Below the pieces are notes generated by a model. The model ran no database searches and was not told the DNA's origin. It worked only from the letters and a program-made list of their open reading frames with translations. Position numbers and translations under genes: made by a program. Positions 2,038 through 57,507 of a stretch of 64,000 nt of DNA are shown here, in pieces. Positions within the stretch are counted from its first letter, which is position 1. Every line of letters starts with the position of its first letter. Origin of the DNA: a virus (taxonomy: Duplodnaviria > Caudoviricetes); the IMG/VR virus record IMGVR_UViG_3300044655_001017, one strand, 5' to 3'.

Positions 2038-5016
2038 ATGCGGTTACGCGAATTATACGAAACAATAAATCTGTTTGAAGCATACGATACTAAAGTTGCT
2101 AAACTACATAAAGAATTTGCTCAAATGCGAGCAGGCTTTCCAGAAAAGCCTGAAACACAATGGGGGCCTGCAGTACCCGCAATTCCAGGTGACCCAAATG
2201 TACCGGATGAAACTCAATTAGCAGCATTAGTTAGTTTTGCCGAACAAGCATTTAAGTCAGGTGCAAAACCATCTGAACAAGCAATGCAATGGTACTTGTC
2301 ATTACTTGAAACTTATTATAAACAAAACGATCCTAAGTTTGCAGGTAAGTTTGCTGCAATGTGCGGTGAATATCAATTTACTGATTTTAATTCATTAAAC
2401 AATGATCTAGCACATTTCTTCACATCAGAATATGCTGATTCACAGTATATAAAGGACATAGTTAAAGCAATTAGACCAGCTACTACTCAAATTGATAATC
2501 TTATTACTAATGCAACTGCAGCTGAACAAAGAATACATGCAGAACACGAAGCAGCACGTAAATTAGCAGGTCGTCCGGATATTAAATTAATGGAAGGCGA
2601 TCAAGTAATATTACCAGTAGATAACAAATATGATTGGTGGTGGTTACCATATAGATCACACGAGTTTGAATCGGCAGCTATGGGACATTGCGGTAACTGT
2701 CAAACATCTGATGGAAATATGTTAAGTCTTCGTACTAACAAACCTATATGGCCTGAATTAACATTTGAATGGAATCCACAAGATAAAATGTTATATCAAA
2801 CAAAAGGCCCTCATAATTCAAAACCTGCTCATAGATATCGTCCGGCTATTTTAAAATTAATGCTTAGTGATTTAATAAGCGGCATTGGTAATGACTCATA
2901 TCAACCAGCTAACGACTTTTCTATATTTGACTTTGAACCAGCAGATGTAAAAACAATTGCAGATCAAAAACCAGATTTGATTACTAGCCAAATAGTAAAG
3001 TATCCGATTGACTTTTTAAGAGCTCCAGAATTTATTAGAGCTATTCCTGAATTTAGAGATATTGCAGTACAAAACGCACGCGGACTAGCAGCACTAGTTG
3101 ACAATACTGGCAAAGTTAACACATCACTAGATGCATGGGAAGATGCAATCGAAGCTGACAGAAGTATTATTATTTACGCTCCGGAAAATCTTAAAGATTA
3201 TGAAGACCGAATTATCGATGCGTTAAAACGTGATTCATCATTGCTAGGATTTGCAAGTGCTAAGATTCGCGGTAATCACAAAATTATGTCTGAAGTAATT
3301 AGATGGAATCCTAACTCAATTGAACTAGTTCCTCTTAGAGCACCTGCATATGAAGAACTAGCACTACAAGCAGTTACAAAAAGAGGTGAGCTATTAAAGG
3401 CTATTCCTGTAGAAAAAAGAACATATGAAATGTGTCTTACAGCTGCAAAAAATCGCCAGCTATGGGATGAAACTCCATTGAGAGAGTTTTACGAATTGTT
3501 TAATACACTACCCTTTACTAAAGACCAACATAGTGAATTAGCTTCATTGGTATTACAATACGATACAGAAAATAAATTATTAGATTTACTACCGGCTAAA
3601 ATTAGAACATTCCTATCATCAATGGCTCGTCTTAAACGCAGTGAACGTGACTATTATGGTGACGACCGCGCAGTACACGTAAAAGAAATAGTTGATTCAG
3701 TTACTCCTGGTTCAGTATCTGATGAAGAATATATGAAAATCTGTTTAAAGGCAGGTGAATTATCATTCCACCGCGCAGTACCAACAGAATTCCAAACATA
3801 TGAATATTTTAAAAAATATATACTTACTATAGAACCAACTGCAAACCGTATTATTACACCGGTCTTTACTCCCGCGTTTAAACAATTACCGCCTGAACAA
3901 CGAGAAGAGTTAGTATCAATTGCTGTAAAGTTATGTCCTGAATCGTATTTTGAATTACCATACGAGTATAAACTTAACTTATCTAGAACACTGAAGATGA
4001 TACAAAAAACTGATAGACCGTTAACTCATGGCATCGTTGCCGATATTACACTAGCGGCAAGTGAAAATGGTGTAACTGACGAAGACTATGATAAGTTAAT
4101 TGCGTATTACAAACACTCGCTTAAAGAAAGTGATGGTTCAGCTATATCCTATTTAAAAAACTATGCATTGACGCAAGCTAAAAAATATAATAACGATGAT
4201 TGGTTTGACGTGTTAGCATATGGCGCTAAACTTAACTTAACAGAATTTATAAATATTTTAACTCCTGATTTTGTTGATAATAACTTCGAATGGGTTGTTG
4301 ATACTATATGTAAAGAATTTAGTCAGTCTAGCTCAAATTTGCACTTTAGTGTATTAACCAACCGATATCCTGAAATTGTTGTTGAATTATTCAAACGCCT
4401 ACCAACTAGTGAGCTAGGTAAACTACAATACCCGCATTATATAGAACAAATGTATGAACTTGATCCTCGCAAGTTTAAACGAGTATTAGAGATTATGGTA
4501 GATCGAGAACCGCATTTAATTGCAGAAATACAAAATTTAGTACCAGACTATATTCCAGAAACAGAACAACCTTGGTTAGATAGATTAAACCATAAAGGAT
4601 TTACTAATGGTGGAATTGCGGCATTAAAATATAACTTCCCAATAGAGCTACTAACTCCTGAACTATTAAATACTGCAATCCTTGGTGCAAATAGAATGGA
4701 TGCTAATATTGAAAGAAAAATAGAGGAGTTATACAAATACTATAAAGATAAACCGGAATACGACGCCGTATTAGAAAATATGTTAGATCTTGTACCTAAC
4801 ATAATTACAATGTTATCTCCTCAAGAGATTGAGCTGTTTCATGTAAAACGCTTTATAACGTATTTAGAAAACAAAAAACATCCACCAGAAAGTATACTGC
4901 TACATTTTAGAAGAGAACCATTTCCGTCAGCTGCATCCCTAAAACCAAACATCGCAGAATATCTAAACAAATATAAAGCAGAGAAAGCACCTAACCTTAG
5001 CACTATCTCTTTTTAA
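2038..5016 (+). CDS. Large protein with PcfJ-like GHCG...Q.KG..NSKP domain and DUF4116-like helical repeats; paralog of next gene
   Basis: 992 aa; N-terminal ~450 aa visibly homologous to 5026..7758 (MGHCG, LSLR, KG..NSKP, YQPA.DFSIFD, KYPIDFLRAP). Confidence 0.6.
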   Translation: MRLRELYETINLFEAYDTKVAKLHKEFAQMRAGFPEKPETQWGPAVPAIPGDPNVPDETQLAALVSFAEQAFKSGAKPSEQAMQWYLSLLETYYKQNDPKFAGKFAAMCGEYQFTDFNSLNNDLAHFFTSEYADSQYIKDIVKAIRPATTQIDNLITNATAAEQRIHAEHEAARKLAGRPDIKLMEGDQVILPVDNKYDWWWLPYRSHEFESAAMGHCGNCQTSDGNMLSLRTNKPIWPELTFEWNPQDKMLYQTKGPHNSKPAHRYRPAILKLMLSDLISGIGNDSYQPANDFSIFDFEPADVKTIADQKPDLITSQIVKYPIDFLRAPEFIRAIPEFRDIAVQNARGLAALVDNTGKVNTSLDAWEDAIEADRSIIIYAPENLKDYEDRIIDALKRDSSLLGFASAKIRGNHKIMSEVIRWNPNSIELVPLRAPAYEELALQAVTKRGELLKAIPVEKRTYEMCLTAAKNRQLWDETPLREFYELFNTLPFTKDQHSELASLVLQYDTENKLLDLLPAKIRTFLSSMARLKRSERDYYGDDRAVHVKEIVDSVTPGSVSDEEYMKICLKAGELSFHRAVPTEFQTYEYFKKYILTIEPTANRIITPVFTPAFKQLPPEQREELVSIAVKLCPESYFELPYEYKLNLSRTLKMIQKTDRPLTHGIVADITLAASENGVTDEDYDKLIAYYKHSLKESDGSAISYLKNYALTQAKKYNNDDWFDVLAYGAKLNLTEFINILTPDFVDNNFEWVVDTICKEFSQSSSNLHFSVLTNRYPEIVVELFKRLPTSELGKLQYPHYIEQMYELDPRKFKRVLEIMVDREPHLIAEIQNLVPDYIPETEQPWLDRLNHKGFTNGGIAALKYNFPIELLTPELLNTAILGANRMDANIERKIEELYKYYKDKPEYDAVLENMLDLVPNIITMLSPQEIELFHVKRFITYLENKKHPPESILLHFRREPFPSAASLKPNIAEYLNKYKAEKAPNLSTISF

Positions 5017-5025
5017 GGAAAAATA

Positions 5026-7758
5026 ATGAGACTAAGAGAATTATACGAAACAATACAACTAGATGAAAACTATAATGGTAAGGTAAACAAACTTAAAAAC
5101 TCACCTTTGTTTGCACAAAACCCTGATCTACTACAAGACTTTGATGCACGACTTGGATGGGCTAAACAAGTGTTCAGTGATAAGAATCAACCTATGCTTT
5201 GGTATATCACACTATACGAAGCTTGGCTATTACAAGAACAAGACCCTAATGCAAAAACAAAATACGAAACAATGTTAGGCGGCCATCCACCTTTTGACTT
5301 TGCTGAATTTGAACAAACATTAAATCACTGGCTGTCTAGTGCATACGCAGAAAGAAATCAAATTAAAGACGTAGTTAAAAAGATCAACGCCCAAACTACA
5401 ACTGTTGATGCATTAATTAAAAACTTAGAAGCAGCTGAAGCAGTTATTAAAAAAGAAGATGAAGCTAAAGCTAAGAACGCAACTCCGATTGAAATACTTG
5501 AAGGCGACCATATTATATTGCCGCTTGGTAATCAAGGAGATTGGTGGTTACTACCTACTAGTTCTCATAAGGCAGAATCTAAGATTATGGGACATTGCGG
5601 TACAGCAGGAAACAACAAAAACGTACTATTGAGCTTACGTGATAAAACTCCAATACCTTGGGTTACTATGGAATACAGTGCTGACAACAAAGAACTACAT
5701 CAAATGAAAGGAAGATCTAATTCTAAACCTGCAAATAAATTCCATCATGCAATACTTGCATTATTAAAAAGCGATTTAGTTGACGGAATGTTTACTGGTC
5801 AAACATATCAACCAGCAAGTGACTTTTCTATATTTGATATGAACCCTGCAATGATAGAAGATGTTGCCGCTACTAAACCAAATCTTATAATGACTCAAAT
5901 TAAAAAGTATCCAATTGACTTTTTAAGAGCACCTCAAACGTTACGTGCAACTCCCGACTATAGAAACTTTGCTATATCATGCTTACCGGGTATTGCTGTA
6001 ATCTTAGACGAAGATGGCGTTACTTCAACAGATAACGACACTTGGGAAGAAGCAATTAACCAAGATCCTGGTATGATTATCTATTCACCCACTACATTAA
6101 AAGATTGGGAAAACCGTGTTACTAAATATTTGGTAAAAAATCATAGAAACTTAGGCTATTGCGGTAATCATATCCGTAGTAATTATAATATAATGAAAGA
6201 AGTAATTACACACGGAGATGCAGCTGCAATTGAATTAGTACCATACAGAGCACCTCAGTATAAAGAACTAGCATTACTTGCTATTGGACAATCGCCAATA
6301 TTGATTAAATCAGTAAACACAGAAGGCTGGTCTAAAGAGGAAATGAGAAAAGCATGGATGAATGCAGCTCATACATATTTAGATACAGAAGATTGGCCAG
6401 ATGAGTTATTTACACCTGAAGATGACAAAGAAATTTGGCGTACACAGGTTAAAAATAATAGATATTCAATTTCAAAAATTCCACCTGGATTGTTTGATGA
6501 ACAAGAATTAATTGAGGTATGGGGTGATGCAACTAAAGCACATCCTGGATTAATAAAGTCATCAGGGTTTATCAACTTAAATATCCCAAACGAAGCAAAA
6601 GATCAAATGAGAATTGCTGCAGTATTTGAACACCCAGAATATATTGCTGAATTTAGACCTGACTTAATTGAAGATGAAAATGATAGAATTGAACTTTGGA
6701 CTAAGGCATGTGATAGCTATCCTAACTTAATTACTGTACTTAAGAAAGCAGCAATACCTGATGAAGTTAAAATAGAATTAACTGTTAAGACAGTACGTGA
6801 TAATCCTACATATATTACAAATATTGATCAACGCTTAATACCTGATGAAAACGAAAGAATTGAACTTTGGATTAAAGCATGCAAAGTTCAACCAAAATAT
6901 AAAAATGATCCGCAATTTCCAACAGACGCATTCGATAGAAATCCTGCAAAACTAAAAGAATTATGGATTAGTATGTTTGAAACCACCTTACCTCATGATT
7001 GCCCTCGGTTGAATGAAATTCCAACAGAACTATTTACCCCAGAAGAATTAACTACATTAGCACGTAAAGTAATTGATAAAGACCCAAGCCAACTAATGTA
7101 CGCGCCGCCCTCTATAACAACTGCTGAAGAAAAATTAACTACTATTAAAGATCTTATGAATAGTGACCCGTGGAAGGTGATGAGCTCGCCACATAATCCA
7201 ACTCCGCCTGATCTGTATACTAGAGAACAAATTAAAGAAGTTTGGGATTATGCGCTTAGTAACGTTACTGACCCAGAATCAGATAGCAACGATGGCTATA
7301 TCGTAACGTCCGATTGGTTGCCATATCATATCGTTGATCAAGACTTGTTAAAGAGTGCTATACAACACGCTGCAATATACGACTATTATGAGAACGATTC
7401 TATATTAGCTAGAATAAATTATAATTTGCTCGAACGACTATTTACTCCAGCAGAAATAAGAAAGTTACATAAAGATGTGATATTAAATGCCAATTGCTAT
7501 ATGGAAGCCGGCGGACCGTTTGCTGCTATACCTCTAAATTATAGAACTTATGAGTTATGTAGATTTGCACTTGATCATGACCCGTCTAATATAAACATAG
7601 TGGTAGCATCAAAAGAAAACTTTACTGAACGTGAATTTGAAGAATTGCGGGCAATGTCCAATGACCCAATTGATGAAGAGTTTGTTAGAGATATACAACA
7701 ACATACCGCACATAACTCATTCCAAAATTACCGCCCATTACCATTTGAAGGACAATAA
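5026..7758 (+). CDS. Large paralog with the same N-terminal domain and helical repeats
   Basis: 910 aa; identical MRLRELYETI start; internal repeat DE.DRIELW.KAC. Confidence 0.6.
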   Translation: MRLRELYETIQLDENYNGKVNKLKNSPLFAQNPDLLQDFDARLGWAKQVFSDKNQPMLWYITLYEAWLLQEQDPNAKTKYETMLGGHPPFDFAEFEQTLNHWLSSAYAERNQIKDVVKKINAQTTTVDALIKNLEAAEAVIKKEDEAKAKNATPIEILEGDHIILPLGNQGDWWLLPTSSHKAESKIMGHCGTAGNNKNVLLSLRDKTPIPWVTMEYSADNKELHQMKGRSNSKPANKFHHAILALLKSDLVDGMFTGQTYQPASDFSIFDMNPAMIEDVAATKPNLIMTQIKKYPIDFLRAPQTLRATPDYRNFAISCLPGIAVILDEDGVTSTDNDTWEEAINQDPGMIIYSPTTLKDWENRVTKYLVKNHRNLGYCGNHIRSNYNIMKEVITHGDAAAIELVPYRAPQYKELALLAIGQSPILIKSVNTEGWSKEEMRKAWMNAAHTYLDTEDWPDELFTPEDDKEIWRTQVKNNRYSISKIPPGLFDEQELIEVWGDATKAHPGLIKSSGFINLNIPNEAKDQMRIAAVFEHPEYIAEFRPDLIEDENDRIELWTKACDSYPNLITVLKKAAIPDEVKIELTVKTVRDNPTYITNIDQRLIPDENERIELWIKACKVQPKYKNDPQFPTDAFDRNPAKLKELWISMFETTLPHDCPRLNEIPTELFTPEELTTLARKVIDKDPSQLMYAPPSITTAEEKLTTIKDLMNSDPWKVMSSPHNPTPPDLYTREQIKEVWDYALSNVTDPESDSNDGYIVTSDWLPYHIVDQDLLKSAIQHAAIYDYYENDSILARINYNLLERLFTPAEIRKLHKDVILNANCYMEAGGPFAAIPLNYRTYELCRFALDHDPSNINIVVASKENFTEREFEELRAMSNDPIDEEFVRDIQQHTAHNSFQNYRPLPFEGQ

Positions 7759-17507: not shown

Positions 17508-17737
17508 AATACGCGCTCCGCATTGTTGTTTAACTTGTACATAGTATAGCAAACTTATTTTGGTTTGTAAAGAAGTTTTAAATCACTAGCTCATACCAGT
17601 TCAATACAGCGATTGCGCTCAATAATACGATAGTAGTGAATACTGCGAATGTGTGTATAAACGACATTTTGTTTGCTCCTCATATATATAGTACACGCAT
17701 AGTATAGCAAACTACATACAGGTTGTCAACTGGTTTG

Positions 17738-18304
17738 TTACTCGGTGTATGCCGCCATTACCAATCCCACATAGTTCTGAGTCTCCGGATATGGTGGAAC
17801 CTTATTCTTATGCCGCATCACCGCATGCTCGCCCGCATTGTAACCGGCTACTGCTAGTTTGGTATCTTTGAATGTATCGAGCAAGAACCTTAGGAACCGA
17901 ACTCCACCTTCAATGTTCTGTCTTTCATCCATCCGATCACTCACTCCAAATCGCTCTGCCGTTGCCGGCATCAGCTGCATCAATCCAGCCGCACCTTTCT
18001 TACTTACAGCCGATTTGCGATATGTACTTTCCGTTTTAATGACTGCATGTACCAACTTCTCATCCACTCCATACTTCTTTGCAGCGATATGAACATAGTG
18101 ATTGACTTCCCATCGGGTTAATGGTTTGGTCTCCGGTTTCGCTACTATAGTAGTATGAACAACTGGTTTGGCTGCAGTATTGATCTCAACCGGATGATCT
18201 GTTAACCAAACTCGCCCATCCGCTCCCGTATATCTATATACATCCGCATTCACCGGCATTACTACTATAGTAGCGAGAATGGCAGCGCGGATCATTTGGC
18301 GCAC
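17738..18304 (-). CDS. Lytic transglycosylase (SLT) with signal peptide and DUF4124-like N-terminus
   Basis: AVIKTES, GLMQLMP, AGYNAG, PPYPETQNYV; DVYRYTGADG. Confidence 0.9.
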   Translation of the reverse strand: MRQMIRAAILATIVVMPVNADVYRYTGADGRVWLTDHPVEINTAAKPVVHTTIVAKPETKPLTRWEVNHYVHIAAKKYGVDEKLVHAVIKTESTYRKSAVSKKGAAGLMQLMPATAERFGVSDRMDERQNIEGGVRFLRFLLDTFKDTKLAVAGYNAGEHAVMRHKNKVPPYPETQNYVGLVMAAYTE

Positions 18305-18588
18305 TCTGCTGCGAACTTAACCATTGCTGCATACTCTGGATTGGCTACAGCGGTGACTACATGAGTAAGTAAATGAGCAATCATTGTAATCCCACCGATC
18401 CATGCTACGATCATTACACATGCATAGGTAAACGCATCCGATCCATTGAACTCATCTTTTAATAACTTAAACAGATAGTATGATCCAGCTAATACTCCAG
18501 ATATTACTACTATAGCGGCAATGTCTGGAATGGTGTCTATAATAGCTTGCTTTGCCAATAACTCTTGTGGTACATTGCATAACTTCAT
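18292..18588 (-). CDS. Two-TM membrane protein
   Basis: Two hydrophobic helices; overlaps SLT start. Confidence 0.65.
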   Translation of the reverse strand: MKLCNVPQELLAKQAIIDTIPDIAAIVVISGVLAGSYYLFKLLKDEFNGSDAFTYACVMIVAWIGGITMIAHLLTHVVTAVANPEYAAMVKFAAECAK

Positions 18589-18989
18589 AACGCGCTCCGC
18601 AGTTGTTGTTTAACTTGTACATATTATAGCATACACAGCGGGGTCTGTAAAGAACTTTGTTACTCGTATACGCCCACTTGTATGTGCGCGTGTAGCGTGT
18701 TATATTATAAGCGCATAGCATACTATAGTATAAGTATGCTCACGCACTATAGCGCATTTATACGCGATATACGCTATGATACACTATAGTATAATAATAA
18801 GCGCATATACACATATGAGTAACTATGCACAGCGGGGCCTTTTATAGGTCCAGGACTCGATAATAACTCGTCATCTTCGGTTTTTGGCCCGCGTCGTTAG
18901 CGGTCTGCAACACCATGATTTTGCCGTTTTTCACGTTTATAGACCGACCTAGTACCAGAGTACAGGGTCCGGTTAAAAAGAATAAGAAA

Positions 18990-19104
18990 AAGCTCACTTT
19001 AGGGAGCGAATCTAAAGTGAGCTTATAGAGTTACTATAGTATAGGGAGCGAATCTATACTATAGTATATAGAGTATAGTTGGGAGCGAATCAACTATACT
19101 CTAT
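18990..19104. repeat. Three tandem perfect hairpins with identical loop GGAGCGAAT
   Basis: Stems 13/13/14 bp of different sequence. Confidence 0.95.
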
Positions 19105-19121
19105 TCATATGCGCGTTATTA

Positions 19122-20000
19122 TTATCTATGTGGGCGCATACAAGTTACAGAAGCTACTGCTTCCCAGTTAGTTGGCATTGCTTTACGCAAATCTGCTACT
19201 TTAAGAACCATACGCAAACTCAATTCACGCATTTTCTTTCTGTGTGTATCGATGTAGTTGAGGATCTCTTCAGCTTCATCTTCTTGGAATTCATACTTGT
19301 CTAGCATACCGTCGCTTACGATTTGCTTAATACGCAACATCTTTTCGCGTTCTGTGTCTATAGTAAGATCTAAGTAGTGGCAACGCGACTCTAATGCTTC
19401 TAAATGATCTTGCAATTTCTTGCTACGAACATGATCAAACTTAACATTTGTAATGAATATACAGCCGCCTTCAAAGTCAAAACTATTTGGAATACCTGCG
19501 TCCTTTAGTATGCGTGACTCTGTGTGCCAACTGATAGTACGCTTACGCCCAGTATCCAATGCTGCTTTGAGCAAGTTGAGCGCAATATCATCAAACAATA
19601 CACTATCGCAGTCGTCAAACACTACGATACACTTCTTGTCCTTATAGTCCCACAGCATTTGATATAAACATAATGCACTGATGTTACCTTTTGCTATAGT
19701 GTACTTCTTTAAGGTTTCATCTTGTGCTACATTGGCGAACACATCATAACGCGATAACACTGTTTCTACACCGTGTGATTTGCCTACTCCAGGTGGTCCA
19801 CTTACGATCATAGCGCGAACATCACCTTTCTTTACTGCACGAGTCATATCATCTAGTATGGCAAACCGTGTGCGCAACCGTTCTACAATCTCTTCGTCCG
19901 TTTCGTGTGATACATGTTCAGCCGGTCTTTGCGCTATAGTACGGTTGGTCTTGATTGTGTCTACGGTGATCATTTGTGGTCTTGCTACTGTTTGTTGCAT
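19122..20000 (-). CDS. AAA+ / P-loop ATPase
   Basis: Walker A GPPGVGKS, Walker B VVFDDCD, FITN sensor, ALESRC arginine finger. Confidence 0.85.
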   Translation of the reverse strand: MQQTVARPQMITVDTIKTNRTIAQRPAEHVSHETDEEIVERLRTRFAILDDMTRAVKKGDVRAMIVSGPPGVGKSHGVETVLSRYDVFANVAQDETLKKYTIAKGNISALCLYQMLWDYKDKKCIVVFDDCDSVLFDDIALNLLKAALDTGRKRTISWHTESRILKDAGIPNSFDFEGGCIFITNVKFDHVRSKKLQDHLEALESRCHYLDLTIDTEREKMLRIKQIVSDGMLDKYEFQEDEAEEILNYIDTHRKKMRELSLRMVLKVADLRKAMPTNWEAVASVTCMRPHR

Positions 20001-20065
20001 ACTTGCTCCGCATTGTGTGTTAGTAAGTGTTTATTATACTATAGTATAGTATGACTGTCAACTGG

Positions 20066-20251: not shown

Positions 20252-20511
20252 TGTTGCGCTCCTACGTTGTTTAACTGTTATGCACATTATAACACACTGC
20301 TTTGAACATTGCAAGCACTTTTTTGGCACAATTTTACCACTGTAATACAACTGTAATGATATAGTAGGAATGGGTGGTTGGGCGGCATAGCTACAATAAA
20401 TACCCCATTGTTTTCCACAAAACCCCTCATATCCCCTGTAACCACCATAGGCCTCCTCTATTGTTTACCAAATAGTGCCACGTGTGCCGCAGGCCTAGCT
20501 TTCATCTCTAT

Positions 20512-26236: not shown

Positions 26237-26271
26237 ATTGGCGTAGTAGGTATAATCACTACTACGCCAAT
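26237..26271. terminator. 13-bp perfect hairpin (terminator or processing stem)
   Basis: ATTGGCGTAGTAG-GTATAATCA-CTACTACGCCAAT. Confidence 0.55.
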
Positions 26272-27210: not shown

Positions 27211-27246
27211 AGTGCATAGTATAACATACTATGCACTGGTATGCAA
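27211..27246 (-). promoter_or_regulatory. Hairpin-type early promoter (representative of 8 copies)
   Basis: TTGCAT-N17-TATACT with inverted repeat AGTGCATAGT..ACTATGCACT over the -10. Confidence 0.75.
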
Positions 27247-28422: not shown

Positions 28423-28491
28423 AAGTTACTCCGCAGTTGTTGTTAGTAAGCGCATAGTATAACAAACTATGCGCTGGTATGCAAATAGTAT

Positions 28492-30880: not shown

Positions 30881-31237
30881 AACGCGCTCCTAAATTACTA
30901 TTAAAGTGATTACTAATACTACTAAAATTGCATCCACAATAGCAAACCCTAATGTGTAGTCGCCTGATGGAAATAACTTGTTGCGTAACGATTGCATATT
31001 GTGCTCCTAATTGTTTGTTAGTAAGCGCATAGTATAACAAACTATGCGCTGGTATGCAAGTGGTAATTACTTCTTGCCTTCGAGCTGTAGCTCGTCGTAA
31101 CGTCCTAAGTTAAATGTCCATGTAGCATTACGATCATGTAACCAGTTAGCATACTTTGAAGGCATGAACATCATTAATGGGTGAACGATTACATTGTGAA
31201 CGAATTCTTTAAACCATTGTTTCATATTGTATTCCTC

Positions 31238-33128: not shown

Positions 33129-33209
33129 TGTGTACTCCTAGTTGTGTGTTAGTAAGTGCATAGTATAACAAACTATGCACTGGTATGCAAGTAGTTTTTA
33201 TATCAAAGT

Positions 33210-33286
33210 TGGCCTGCCTAACGGGACTTGAACCCATAGCCTTTCCCTTAGGAGGGGAACGCTCTGTCCATTTGAGCTATAGGCAG
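33210..33286 (-). tRNA. tRNA-Arg(CCT)
   Basis: Full cloverleaf, TTCCC-CTCCTAA-GGGAA, TTCAAGT T-loop, encoded CCA. Confidence 0.9.
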
Positions 33287-34514: not shown

Positions 34515-35210
34515 ATGAAATTATGTAAAGAATGTTCAACACCTGTTACAAAACGAGATAATATATTTTGTAACCGATCCTGTGCCGCAAAGTATAACAA
34601 CCGTTCAAAAGATTATTCAACATTTAAATCAGGACCACAAACATTAGAATCAAAATTAAAAACATCGTTGGTTAGACGTGCTATCAATAAACAGAAACGT
34701 TCATTAACAGGACCATCAAAAAATTATCTATATGTCACTTCACAAACTGCAATCAAAGAGGCCATTGCTAATAATATACCATACACTAAAGTTTATCTAT
34801 GTAACTGCAAAAAGACAAACATTACTTGGTATTCAACTTCATGGAAATGTGTACATCCTTCTGTAATACAATCAAAAAGTGAATATAGATATCAATGTCG
34901 TTTTAACTTTTCATTATCTCAATTTAAAGATTGGTTTGATTACTCATCTACACTAATTGAAACATATGGTTGGTATTCTGCATCCAACAAACATAATAAT
35001 CTATCCGGATGCTCTCGAGACCATATGTACTCAGTTAGTGATGGATATGCAAACAATGTCAGTCCTGCTATTATTTCACATCCTGCTAATTGCGAAATAA
35101 AACCACATCGTTTAAATCAATCAAAACATTCAATCTCCTCTATTACCTTAGAGGAGTTACATACTCGTATTGCCAAATTTGATAAACAATACGCTAATTG
35201 GAGGAACTAG
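34515..35210 (+). CDS. HNH homing endonuclease with N-terminal Zn finger
   Basis: CKEC..FCNRSC; SRDH..S....HPANC....H..N; ATAAATA at 34489 upstream. Confidence 0.75.
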   Translation: MKLCKECSTPVTKRDNIFCNRSCAAKYNNRSKDYSTFKSGPQTLESKLKTSLVRRAINKQKRSLTGPSKNYLYVTSQTAIKEAIANNIPYTKVYLCNCKKTNITWYSTSWKCVHPSVIQSKSEYRYQCRFNFSLSQFKDWFDYSSTLIETYGWYSASNKHNNLSGCSRDHMYSVSDGYANNVSPAIISHPANCEIKPHRLNQSKHSISSITLEELHTRIAKFDKQYANWRN

Positions 35211-35273
35211 CCGAAGTTGCATCGGCACCGCAAGGTTTTGCAGACCTGCATACTGCTGTTATACTATAGTTCC
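35199..35273 (-). tRNA. tRNA-Cys(GCA)
   Basis: GGAACTA/TAGTTCC acceptor, CTGCAAA loop, U73, CCA; atypical T-loop TGCAACT. Confidence 0.8.
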
Positions 35274-35319
35274 ATTAAAAATGGCATGTCGCTGCCGACG
35301 ACATATAAAATGTATTAGG

Positions 35320-35393
35320 GGTGACTAGTGGGACTTGAACCCACAAAATCTCGAATCACAATCGAGGACGTCTACCAATTCCGTCATAGTCAC
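35320..35393 (-). tRNA. tRNA-His(GTG), CCA not encoded
   Basis: CTCGA-TTGTGAT-TCGAG, C73, GGGTTCAAGTCCC. Confidence 0.85.
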
Positions 35394-35435
35394 ACCTAAT
35401 ACATCTTTAAAATTGTTATGTGATAAAACATTCTG

Positions 35436-35507
35436 TGCCTCCCCTCAGGATCGAACTGAGATAGTAGAAATTATGAGTTTCCTGCATTACCTTTATGCTA
35501 AAGAGGC
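35436..35507 (-). tRNA. tRNA with CAT anticodon (elongator Met or Ile2), CCA not encoded
   Basis: GGAAA-CTCATAA-TTTCT, CTCAG-TTCGATC-CTGAG; lacks initiator features. Confidence 0.8.
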
Positions 35508-36217: not shown

Positions 36218-36592
36218 TCAGCTACCCCAACAAATAGTTGTTACAGGGTCATCGCTAACAAATTCAAACTCTGTGTCAAACCCAAGTTCTTCATAATGAC
36301 GATCGATGTTTTCTATAACATAGTCTAATATTTCTTGTGTCTGTGCTTCAACGTACACTGTATCTTTACCTTTAGTGTGCCGCCATACGCCAACATGGTG
36401 AACAACATCAACTTCACCGGATGTGTGGCCGTTTTCAGCTTTTAGTTTAATTACTCCGTTTATACGAGCAATCACAGACTCTGTTAGTTTCTCTATCATA
36501 ATAGCTTGAACCTCGCGGCCGAGTTCGATTGCTTGTATTGCAGTAAGTTCATTTAACATATTACGCTCCGCAGTTTGTGTAAGTAAAAACAT
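36218..36592 (-). CDS. Hypothetical protein (start probably MLNEL)
   Basis: Promoter cassette. Confidence 0.6.
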   Translation of the reverse strand: MFLLTQTAERNMLNELTAIQAIELGREVQAIMIEKLTESVIARINGVIKLKAENGHTSGEVDVVHHVGVWRHTKGKDTVYVEAQTQEILDYVIENIDRHYEELGFDTEFEFVSDDPVTTICWGS

Positions 36593-36822: not shown

Positions 36823-36877
36823 ATCGCGCTCCTAGTGTGTTAAGTTGTGCATAGTATCACAAACTATGCGCAGGTAA

Positions 36878-37210
36878 TTACATCTCAACCCATCCAAATG
36901 AGTCACATAAGTAATCAGTACCATCAACTTCTACTACATCGCCCACTGACACTGAACGATGTCTTCCATAAAATCTATTACGATCTTCTTCGCGACTTGG
37001 ATTGTTAGTTAAGTCAAACGCCTCTTCAGCTGCTTCAATGCCAGCTTCAGTCAATGTGATTGGGTAGTGTTGAGTGTATAATGGCAACCAGGCTTTAGCA
37101 TACTTAACTTTATTTTCCGCAAAGTAGAGTTCTGCGAGTAGTTTAGTTGGGGCAAGTTTAATAATAACTTTTGACATTGTGCGCTCCGCATTGCTTGTTA
37201 GTAAGCGCAT
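36878..37210 (-). CDS. YodL-like domain protein
   Basis: HRSVSVGDVVEV...YLCDSFGW. Confidence 0.6.
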   Translation of the reverse strand: MRLLTSNAERTMSKVIIKLAPTKLLAELYFAENKVKYAKAWLPLYTQHYPITLTEAGIEAAEEAFDLTNNPSREEDRNRFYGRHRSVSVGDVVEVDGTDYLCDSFGWVEM

Positions 37211-37250
37211 AGTATAACAAACTATGCGCTGGTTTGCAAGTGATTTTTAA

Positions 37251-37574
37251 TTAGTAATAGAACCGTCTCGTGCAATCTGTATCTTTAAAACGTTCTTCGT
37301 AATCATCCGGAACACCATGCGTTGTGCCCGGTATATTGCGTATTCCTGGACGTACACCTTCTGGGCAATCAACACTAAACAAGTAATTGAATCCTCTGTA
37401 ATTACCTGAGTCATGTAATACACGTTCAATCATTAAAATGATGCCATTGCGCCATGGTTCGTTGCCATGATCTGCTTTGAGCATTTCATTTGCATAGAGT
37501 CTTAATTCCTCTACGTTTACTGTTTTTCTTGACTTTGGCATAGTGCGCTCCGCATTGCTTGTTAGTAAGCGCAT
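37251..37574 (-). CDS. Hypothetical phage protein (start probably MPKSR)
   Basis: GNYRGFNYL. Confidence 0.6.
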   Translation of the reverse strand: MRLLTSNAERTMPKSRKTVNVEELRLYANEMLKADHGNEPWRNGIILMIERVLHDSGNYRGFNYLFSVDCPEGVRPGIRNIPGTTHGVPDDYEERFKDTDCTRRFYY

Positions 37575-37585
37575 AGTATAACAAA

Positions 37586-37963
37586 CTATGCGCTGAATTG
37601 CAACTGTTTATTAATCGCAACGTTTCCGAGCACTCTGTTTACAAAGTCTTGAGCGTCTTCGTCTACTTTTGTCAAGATGTAGCCGGAGCCGTCAACTAAG
37701 TCTATATAACATACTTGAGCGTTGATGCCTGCAATTTTTAATGCTTCATTCATCTTGCTAAAAGCATACTCTGCACCGGCTGTAAAGGCGTCTATCTCTT
37801 CTTCTGTTACGTCTTCATAGCCGTAAACTGCCATGTCTTCTTCAACAGTTTCAAAGTCATATACAATTGACTTGTTGATTTCATCCCAGACTGCACGATC
37901 CTCTGGATCAAAGTAATCGCCATCGCTAAGATCAAGTTCAGGGAAGTTATAAGTAGTAGACAT
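37586..37963 (-). CDS. Acidic hypothetical protein
   Basis: Own promoter; its 3' end encodes the next promoter. Confidence 0.65.
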   Translation of the reverse strand: MSTTYNFPELDLSDGDYFDPEDRAVWDEINKSIVYDFETVEEDMAVYGYEDVTEEEIDAFTAGAEYAFSKMNEALKIAGINAQVCYIDLVDGSGYILTKVDEDAQDFVNRVLGNVAINKQLQFSA

Positions 37964-38479: not shown

Positions 38480-38709
38480 GCTATCTCCTCTAACATCATC
38501 TCAACTTCTTCTGCGTAAGCGTTTGGACGCTCTTCTTTCAACTCGTTACATCTTGGACATTCTTGTATAGCAACGTGATGTATCCAGTTAGTTAATTCGC
38601 CAGGGCAACTACATTCCCAGTAGCTAAAATTTAGTGTTATACCGTAGCAATGTTCTAATACTTCGCCACGGTTATTGAAACTGTAAGTTAAAGACATTGT
38701 GCGCTCCAA
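38476..38709 (-). CDS. Zn-finger protein, paralog of 52530
   Basis: YWECSC...ECPRC. Confidence 0.6.
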   Translation of the reverse strand: MERTMSLTYSFNNRGEVLEHCYGITLNFSYWECSCPGELTNWIHHVAIQECPRCNELKEERPNAYAEEVEMMLEEIA

Positions 38710-39748: not shown

Positions 39749-39815
39749 AGTGCGCTCCGCGTGTGTTTAAGTAAAAAACATATTATAGCAAAGTTGCATT
39801 TGGTTGTAAAGAAGT

Positions 39816-57034: not shown

Positions 57035-57507
57035 ATTAGGTATAAAGGACTAAAGTCCTAAATTATAATAATTTTATATTCGTTGGCACTCATATCAATT
57101 ATTATAATTTTATTTTCTTTCTTTGAATATTTTGTTAGATTTAGAAGTCATATTGGCCCGCAAAGGCCAATGGAACATTTGTTGAGTTTCTTCATGTCTT
57201 AGCATTAGAGCATTACAGAGGCGGTCATCCGGTACCTCGAGCTCCGTCCTGGTTTTTATATGACGGCGGACTAATTATACAATGCTAACCATATAATCAG
57301 TCGTAAGGGTGTTACCCTTTCTTTTAACCTTATGTGTACAGCGGGGCCATAACCTGTAATGAGTTTTGTAAAGGTACATCTCATGTTCATCCAAATGGGT
57401 AGGTGGTTATGTCGTTGCTACAGTTCAACAATTCCATCACTGTGATACATCTGTCCAGTTATAGGGCGCATAGATAATACAGTTTGCGCGACACCTGCTG
57501 TAGTTAT
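57035..57507 (-). ncRNA. Candidate large structured ncRNA or leader
   Basis: ORF-free ~480 nt with many nested helices downstream of TTGACA-N17-TATAGT. Confidence 0.55.

Follow-up and report, generated by a model that had tools for sequence, protein, structure and literature searches.

The c4 antisense RNA of phages P1 and P7 (Rfam RF01695) exposes loops that pair with the ribosome-binding site (RBS) region of the phage's own mRNA; P1 and P7 differ in the loop and, jointly with it, in the target. The mature c4 is a processed RNA of ~77 nt, belongs to the immunity operon of temperate phages, and has a single target. In alphaproteobacteria, the cuckoo RNAs (RSs0680a-d/CcsR and C14/alpha-r14) comprise two to four adjacent hairpins, in which variable stems carry a shared loop motif resembling an anti-Shine-Dalgarno (anti-SD) sequence (PMC4615179). 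As described in the same source, several hairpin loops of Staphylococcus aureus RNAIII bind the RBSs of multiple mRNAs with the same C-rich (UCCC) seed (PMC4615179). In the icaR mRNA of S. aureus, a C-rich motif in the 3'UTR pairs with the SD of the same mRNA, by which initiation is blocked and a substrate of RNase III is formed (PMC3868564). Finally, the PeSLs of T4-like phages are composite modules of an early promoter and a stem-loop, described as recombination substrates that have spread through hyperplastic regions (PMC4122927, PMC2839356).

We analyzed an element of three hairpins that share one loop, found in a 64-kb stretch of DNA (IMG/VR record IMGVR_UViG_3300044655_001017; the whole stretch is termed the window). 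The architecture is that of the cuckoo RNAs, with three hairpins and one loop in the window and two or three hairpins in its relatives. However, the cuckoo loop motif is CCUCCUCCC (PMC4615179) and all of the phage copies carry AUUCGCUCC. Cuckoo RNAs are chromosomal in alphaproteobacteria whereas the element studied here is phage-borne, and the phage loop fits an RBS extension private to the phages, not the generic SD. The location in a 3'UTR recalls icaR, as does the RBS of the ATPase gene preceding the hairpins in two relatives (G008 and L047), GGAGCGAA(U), which is complementary over 8-9 nt to the loops in its own 3'UTR; in the window, the ATPase RBS shares only 5 nt (GGAGC) with the loops. 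In contrast to icaR, in which one motif acts on one host gene, the phage element has two or three loops, for which potential targets number in the dozens. The architecture is also reminiscent of the C-rich loops of RNAIII, but this large regulatory RNA of the host uses a short generic seed and bears no relation in sequence or structure to the phage element. As in PeSLs, a tag of the window, GGAGCG(AA), lies within a repeated promoter-leader-RBS cassette, but the triple hairpin occupies a single locus per genome, carries no promoter, and is not directly followed by one. c4 is a functional parallel to the phage element, albeit no match to RF01695 was obtained here.

Rfam searches at the gathering score and under a permissive threshold (E <= 10) returned nothing relevant, RF01695 and the cuckoo-type models included. 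Against ~50,000 GenBank phages, BLAST gave no match for the region, for the element of a relative or for a 21-nt loop (see below), and a full-text literature search for the 9-mer retrieved only unrelated primers and siRNAs. When the tandem motif was sought in 185,000 genomes of bacteria and archaea, all of the 86 matches were unrelated (simple tandem, REP-like or coding repeats), and no host counterpart was found. Altogether, no description of the element was found in Rfam, the GenBank phages or the literature searched. The element differs in motif and host range from the families compared above, has no Rfam match, and belongs to none of them.

Three hairpins behind an ATPase gene

All of the genes across the hairpin region lie on the minus strand (hereafter the gene strand). 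The initial annotation had described three perfect hairpins with different stems of 13, 13 and 14 bp, one 9-nt loop and G:C closure, starting 17 nt past the stop codon of an ATPase gene. We recovered precisely these inverted repeats at 18990-19104, with 100% complementary arms, each closed by G:C; the ATPase ORF ends at 19122, leaving a gap of 17 nt. Each repeat encloses the same 9-nt spacer, GGAGCGAAT in plus-strand and AUUCGCUCC in gene-strand orientation. There are just three exact copies of the GGAGCGAAT 9-mer in the 64-kb window, all of them in these hairpins. The features of the unit are as follows.

20033..20061, minus strand: sigma70-type promoter of the ATPase unit, TTGACA-17-TATAAT (12/12 consensus match; ~24 nt upstream of the RBS)
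20005..20009, minus strand: ATPase RBS GGAGC (5 nt complementary to the loops)
19122..20000, minus strand: AAA ATPase gene, T4 nrdC.11-like, 292 aa (Pfam, PHROG, PA5oct homologue)
19068..19104, minus strand: hairpin 3, first transcribed (arms 19068-19081/19091-19104; 14-bp stem, loop AUUCGCUCC)
19032..19066, minus strand: hairpin 2 (arms 19032-19044/19054-19066; 13-bp stem, loop AUUCGCUCC)
18990..19024, minus strand: hairpin 1, last transcribed (arms 18990-19002/19012-19024; 13-bp stem, loop AUUCGCUCC; intrinsic-terminator stem)
18975..18989, minus strand: U-run UUUCUUAUUCUUUUU, directly after hairpin 1

From the promoter at 20061-20033 and the terminator hairpin 1, the order of the unit is promoter, ATPase gene (20000-19122), three hairpins and U-run; the early transcript would hold a single gene, with the hairpins as its 3'UTR and terminator. 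The minus-strand RNA folded into exactly these three hairpins with a minimum free energy of -50.2 kcal/mol (z = -8.55), and none of the 200 shuffles was as good. Hairpin 1, a 13-bp stem directly followed by UUUCUUAUUCUUUUU, looks like an intrinsic (Rho-independent) terminator, and it is the only one of the three with this organization. No U-run was found at hairpins 2 and 3, the stems of which reuse an TATACTATAG-type sequence common in this phage. The window contains another perfect hairpin at 26237-26271, with a stem of 13 bp and the same UAG/CUA closing pairs, but its 9-nt loop is a different one (GTATAATCA, plus strand).

The ATPase showed weak matches to the Pfam AAA families (E 4e-6, under the curated cut-off) and hit PHROG 1250 at 1e-83. 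It is of the T4 nrdC.10/.11 type and shares 48.6% identity with the homologue of Pseudomonas phage PA5oct. This jumbo phage (Arenbergviridae) is the nearest cultured relative of the window (58% identity in DnaB and 49% in the ATPase), but the motif is absent from PA5oct and another gene directly follows its ATPase gene. The source of the window is an uncultured lake-water jumbo phage with tRNA genes and many small early ORFs. Four tRNA genes were found on the minus strand (33210-33286, 35202-35273, 35318-35393 and 35435-35507); ARAGORN called Arg-CCU, His-GUG and Met-CAU, and the gene at 35202-35273 was called by Rfam only. The Polynucleobacter-1 RNA motif (RF01718) was detected in full length at 57350-57494 on the minus strand (59.6 bits vs. 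a gathering score of 37), consistent with a freshwater phage. Two adjacent ORFs on the plus strand (2038-5016 and 5026-7758; 992 and 910 aa) each matched DUF4116 and no other family, and may be paralogues.

Several identities were considered for the hairpins and rejected. The plus-strand sequence CTCACTTTAGGGAG is similar to the T7 core, but the "-17 to -1" part of such a T7/T3-like promoter would be the variable stem. An N4-type hairpin promoter and a lambda boxA/boxB nut site, likewise envisaged on sequence grounds, were discarded. A tRNA T-loop was discarded since position 58 is other than A, and CsrA-type GGA loops on the plus strand would lie on the wrong strand. A small ORF through the loops was dismissed on account of the covarying stems and an in-frame stop codon. 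GGGAGCGAA is presumably also present in helix 24 of the 16S rRNA in many phyla.

Right after the terminator (region 18850-18968), a block of ~90 nt at 18966-18885 on the minus strand is 97-100% identical to the related contig G004, whereas its flanks, hairpin 3 included, have diverged. Two metatranscriptome contigs (X19 and X20) of a ~90% relative span 18633-18962; with their shared end at 18962, neither covers the hairpins, which speaks neither for nor against transcription of these. The block had no Rfam match, and could be a separate ncRNA or contain a 24-codon ORF (ATG at 18916).

An RNA family in uncultured freshwater phages

Relatives of the element were sought with the motif and with the ATPase protein. 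The IMG/VR scan, in which two copies of GGGAGCGAATC had to lie 18-48 nt apart, detected 57 loci, three of which (viral matches L032, L038 and L049) were simple repeats and left out. The search with the ATPase protein detected 24 loci, and in 16 of them the element immediately follows the stop codon, spanning 100-185 nt with two motif copies and a terminator at its end. Loci found by an exact motif match are unable to show loop variation, whereas the 16 loci derived from the ATPase are free of that bias; the exact core was found in all 16. Across uncultured freshwater phage contigs, the core GAUUCGCUCCC is invariant in ~90 stem contexts, and the exact 9-mer occurs in 91 distinct contexts. No structured loop variant with one mismatch was found among all of the loci; the one-mismatch variants GTTCGCTCC turned out to be the reverse strands of RBS sites, not hairpins.

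In the closest contig (G001; 93% identical over the hairpin region), all three loops are kept and one of the stem changes, in hairpin 1, makes a G.U pair on the sense strand. The other contigs are more distant. In G004, the ATPase of which is 87% identical, the loops are kept but the stem of hairpin 3 is completely different, and this stem was likewise wholly replaced in L020 with the loop retained. One motif copy in G002 lacks a U. The stems of a recurrent unit, P1, vary over 7 bp around an invariant 21-mer, CCAACGAUUCGCUCCCGGYAA. Among the 19 distinct P1 sequences, 100% of the cells were paired and compensatory changes were found in all seven stem pairs, as opposed to 27-37% paired in slid controls. 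These sequences comprise 18 distinct stems, and the ~90 contexts come from clades in which the ATPase identity ranges from 54 to 87%. The loop of the terminator unit, P3, reads RUAARYCCGAUUCGCUCCCGGYN. In the relatives found at the ATPase locus, the motif sits in larger loops than those of the window; the form in the window, with three hairpins and minimal loops, is unusual. Altogether, the annotated idea of an invariant loop displayed on differing stems, which was to be checked in relatives, held: the loop is conserved and the stems covary.

The element usually comprises two or three copies in the ATPase 3'UTR. In one clade (G002, L048, L050 and L060), it stands alone as a putative small RNA of ~115-130 nt with a promoter of its own (TTGACA-N17-TATATA or TATAAT). 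Other jumbo-phage contigs carry single copies ahead of a terminator, within 3'UTRs that belong to other early genes. In the window, G001 and G004, the motif is confined to a single locus. In L088-L099, a G-rich box (GAGGGGTGGGGG or CGACCACCGACCGG) followed by TATAYA lies ~60-130 nt downstream of the terminator of the element and may represent a phage-specific promoter type distinct from sigma70.

The hairpins could be plain tandem terminators or hairpins stabilizing 3' ends, in which a functionless loop is shared through common descent or gene conversion. Such an explanation accommodates hairpin 1 and its U-run, a textbook intrinsic terminator, the T-runs trailing most family members, and the common TATACTATAG-type sequence in stems 2 and 3. 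We regard it as improbable, however, as neutral loops are expected to drift and this loop stayed invariant across many stem replacements (18 P1 stems and ~90 contexts, at ATPase identities of 54-87%), and hairpins 2 and 3 have no U-run.

The strand on which the structure forms was called by direct pair counts, since fold energies of sense and antisense strands over 73-nt windows were too noisy. Wobbles in the stems of relatives are G.U on the AUUCGCUCC strand in nine cases (seven in P1 and two in units of the window type) and A.C in none. A T-run of at least 4 nt lies within 70 nt downstream on the sense side in 39 of the 49 distinct clusters, and on the antisense side in 0 of the 49. Thus, the hairpins are an RNA-level structure of the minus (sense) strand. 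The initial annotation had offered, as one of two readings, hairpins extruded in ssDNA or as cruciforms and read by a primase, an initiator or a nickase at an origin or priming site. The perfect stems, the DnaB-like helicase encoded in the window, and GCT, a T4-type primase site, within the loop would suit that reading. Nevertheless, it conflicts with the sense-only G.U pairs, with the strict orientation relative to the terminator T-runs, and with the location of the element in 3'UTRs of several different genes or, in one clade, behind its own sigma70-type promoter. Loops of 20 nt or more on 7-bp stems, as often found, are furthermore poor for cruciform extrusion. We therefore see next to no chance for a role at the DNA level.

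The element is a new structured phage RNA family, well supported by the above, and merits a covariance model whatever its mechanism.

Complementarity between the loops and early ribosome-binding sites

It had been noticed in the initial annotation that the loop is complementary to a GGAGCG RBS in at least a dozen leaders. We found 16 such sites, the named positions included, among the 70 GGAG-type RBSs on the minus strand of the window; about ten lie in promoter cassettes. The tag of the window is GGAGCG followed by C or U, and only 6 nt of it are complementary to the loops. The RBS of the next gene and the candidate targets in early promoter cassettes are listed below.

18593..18598, minus strand: RBS GGAGCG of the next gene (18292-18588), part of a promoter cassette (promoter at 18623-18651)
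17514..17519, minus strand: candidate target RBS GGAGCG, early promoter cassette
20257..20262, minus strand: candidate target RBS GGAGCG, early promoter cassette
36564..36569, minus strand: candidate target RBS GGAGCG, early promoter cassette
37182..37187, minus strand: candidate target RBS GGAGCG, early promoter cassette
37546..37551, minus strand: candidate target RBS GGAGCG, early promoter cassette
38702..38707, minus strand: candidate target RBS GGAGCG, early promoter cassette
39753..39758, minus strand: candidate target RBS GGAGCG, early promoter cassette
First G at 36832, 30890, 21406, 17191, 15412, 14729, 14395 and 11704: further GGAGCG RBSs

At the motif-bearing loci, 273 of the 558 GGAG-type RBSs are GGAGCG and 149 are GGAGCGAA, for which ~0.4% is expected by chance. 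GGAGCGAA is the exact complement of UUCGCUCC, a match that holds in the GC-richer relatives. A sigma70-like -10 box lies 20-22 nt ahead of 92% of the GGAGCGAA RBSs, compared with 22% of the other RBSs (Fisher p = 3e-43). GGAGCGAA is the RBS tag of promoter-proximal early genes and part of a fixed early cassette. In the nearly complete G008 (IMGVR_UViG_3300023174_000036; 356 kb), ten GGAGCGAA RBSs, that of the ATPase included, lie in the same orientation within ~8 kb directly upstream of the element. RBSs matching the loop over 9-11 nt also exist, and G005 has GGGAGCGAAUC-g-AUG. Furthermore, the 5'UTR of a predicted membrane protein of 194 aa in G008 (278912-279548, plus strand; L229) contains a small hairpin that displays the 11-mer GGGAGCGAAUC, followed 41 nt on by the 10-mer RBS GGAGCGAAUC. 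With two perfect sites for a two-loop RNA, this gene is a candidate primary target.

Six copies of the palindrome AGYGCATAGT-N7-ACTATGCRCT are present in the window (27211-27237, 28449-28475, 31024-31050, 33155-33181, 37204-37230 and 37568-37594). Each holds TGTTATACT, an extended -10 box on the gene strand, and ends 17 nt before a GGAG RBS. The palindrome resembles an operator that overlaps early promoters, or else a cassette of the PeSL type.

The predicted duplex of the loop reaches -13.9 kcal/mol with the family tag and -11.1 kcal/mol with GGAGCG of the window; the 16S tail on the same RBSs reaches -7.6 and -5.8 kcal/mol. Over the 106 start regions of the window, the loop was not significant, as 25% of the controls keeping CUCCC did as well. 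Over the 870 start regions of the relatives, the real loop ranked fourth against 180 controls keeping CUCCC. As to an antisense RNA with loops pairing to SDs, the other reading in the initial annotation, the relatives lend it support with 8-11 nt of complementarity to a promoter-linked tag and a coupled switch of loop and tag (see below), whereas in the window the complementarity of 6 nt is no better than that of CUCC-core controls. Likewise, complementarity to the RBSs of several mRNAs and covariation of seed and putative target, as expected of an anti-RBS seed, were found at the level of the family; the window on its own gives 6 nt and 16 leaders, not above control.

The loop is not the best possible complement of the tags: its position A1 faces C in most of them, and the better complement GUUCGCUCC is never used. 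The invariance is also wider than the 8 nt that would be paired, extending to an 11-nt core and, in P1, to 21 nt. Such invariance beyond the needs of pairing hints at a protein partner or at a few key targets that are fully matched. We weighed whether the loops bind a conserved RNA-binding protein of phage or host that acts in termination, read-through or mRNA stability at the ends of early units, with the RBS match secondary or incidental. The motif often lies in the terminator's own loop, which is unusually large, the loops persist in the G002 clade where GGAGCG RBSs are nearly absent, and two or three repeated sites would suit a multimeric binder. On the other hand, no candidate protein is linked to the element, the neighbors of which vary by clade, and protein binding leaves unexplained why two clades of different sequence both have an early RBS tag complementary to their loop. 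On balance, binding to a protein as the main function seems rather unlikely.

Coupled change of loop and tag between clades

Distant ATPase loci were found by a profile-based search. In a sister clade (L281, L285, L288, L290 and L308), the hairpin loops in the ATPase 3'UTR are UGCCCUC and the promoter-proximal tags are GAGGGCA or AAGGGCA, the former being the exact complement of the loop. Neither GGAGCG tags nor UUCGCUCC loops were found in this clade. With the pair of the window's relatives denoted as A and that of the sister clade as B, the 100 distinct ATPase loci comprised 40 with loop A and tag A, five with loop B and tag B, none with loop A and tag B, and one with loop B and tag A. The switch is essentially one or two evolutionary events. 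Nevertheless, it is difficult to see how two sequences of 7-8 nt would jointly be replaced by another complementary pair if they did not interact, and the switch of both partners supports putative loop-to-RBS pairing.

We propose that such pairing, by which the translation of early genes would be controlled, is the best-supported mechanism, and put its probability at roughly 0.6 for the family and lower for this phage. The loops, carried either by the entire mRNA or by a stable piece of its 3'UTR, would base-pair with the RBSs of early leaders. Pairing could occur in trans, and relatives could additionally pair in cis through the RBS of the ATPase itself. The duplex would compete with the 30S subunit and thereby restrict early-gene translation or turn it off, and duplex-dependent decay may contribute. 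The shut-off of early genes by the loops is what we infer from the pairing. The tag of this AT-rich phage has drifted to GGAGCG(C/U), which leaves only 6 bp (~-11 kcal/mol), so that the effect may be weaker here.

A broader scheme can be advanced only tentatively: a large group of uncultured freshwater jumbo phages related to PA5oct may use an RNA-only early-gene switch, in which private RBS tags on early promoter cassettes are titrated by a multi-loop anti-tag RNA located at the end of an early unit and clades use orthogonal pairs (GGAGCGAA/UUCGCUCC and GAGGGCA/UGCCCUC). If so, the anti-tag RNA would do the job of the T4 RegA and RegB proteins; a Pfam search for RegB and RegA in five related records returned nothing over the cut-off, albeit this search had no positive control and thus does not show their absence. 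Were the pairing real, the element would be an RNA regulator that is widespread among uncultured jumbo phages and has not been described before, in which one small element could set the translation of a whole class of early genes via a private SD extension. Temporal control of gene expression in lytic phages would thereby gain a route based on RNA. It would also imply that phages evolve orthogonal RBS/anti-RBS pairs, which could be natural parts for synthetic translation control.

Finally, the ATPase 3'UTR of L245 (IMGVR_UViG_3300027973_000032; ~4880-4960) contains two hairpins with a variant loop, GUCGCUCCC, in which AU is lost. The RBSs at this locus are mostly GGAGCA(A/C), and L245 may represent a third state of the tag-loop pair.
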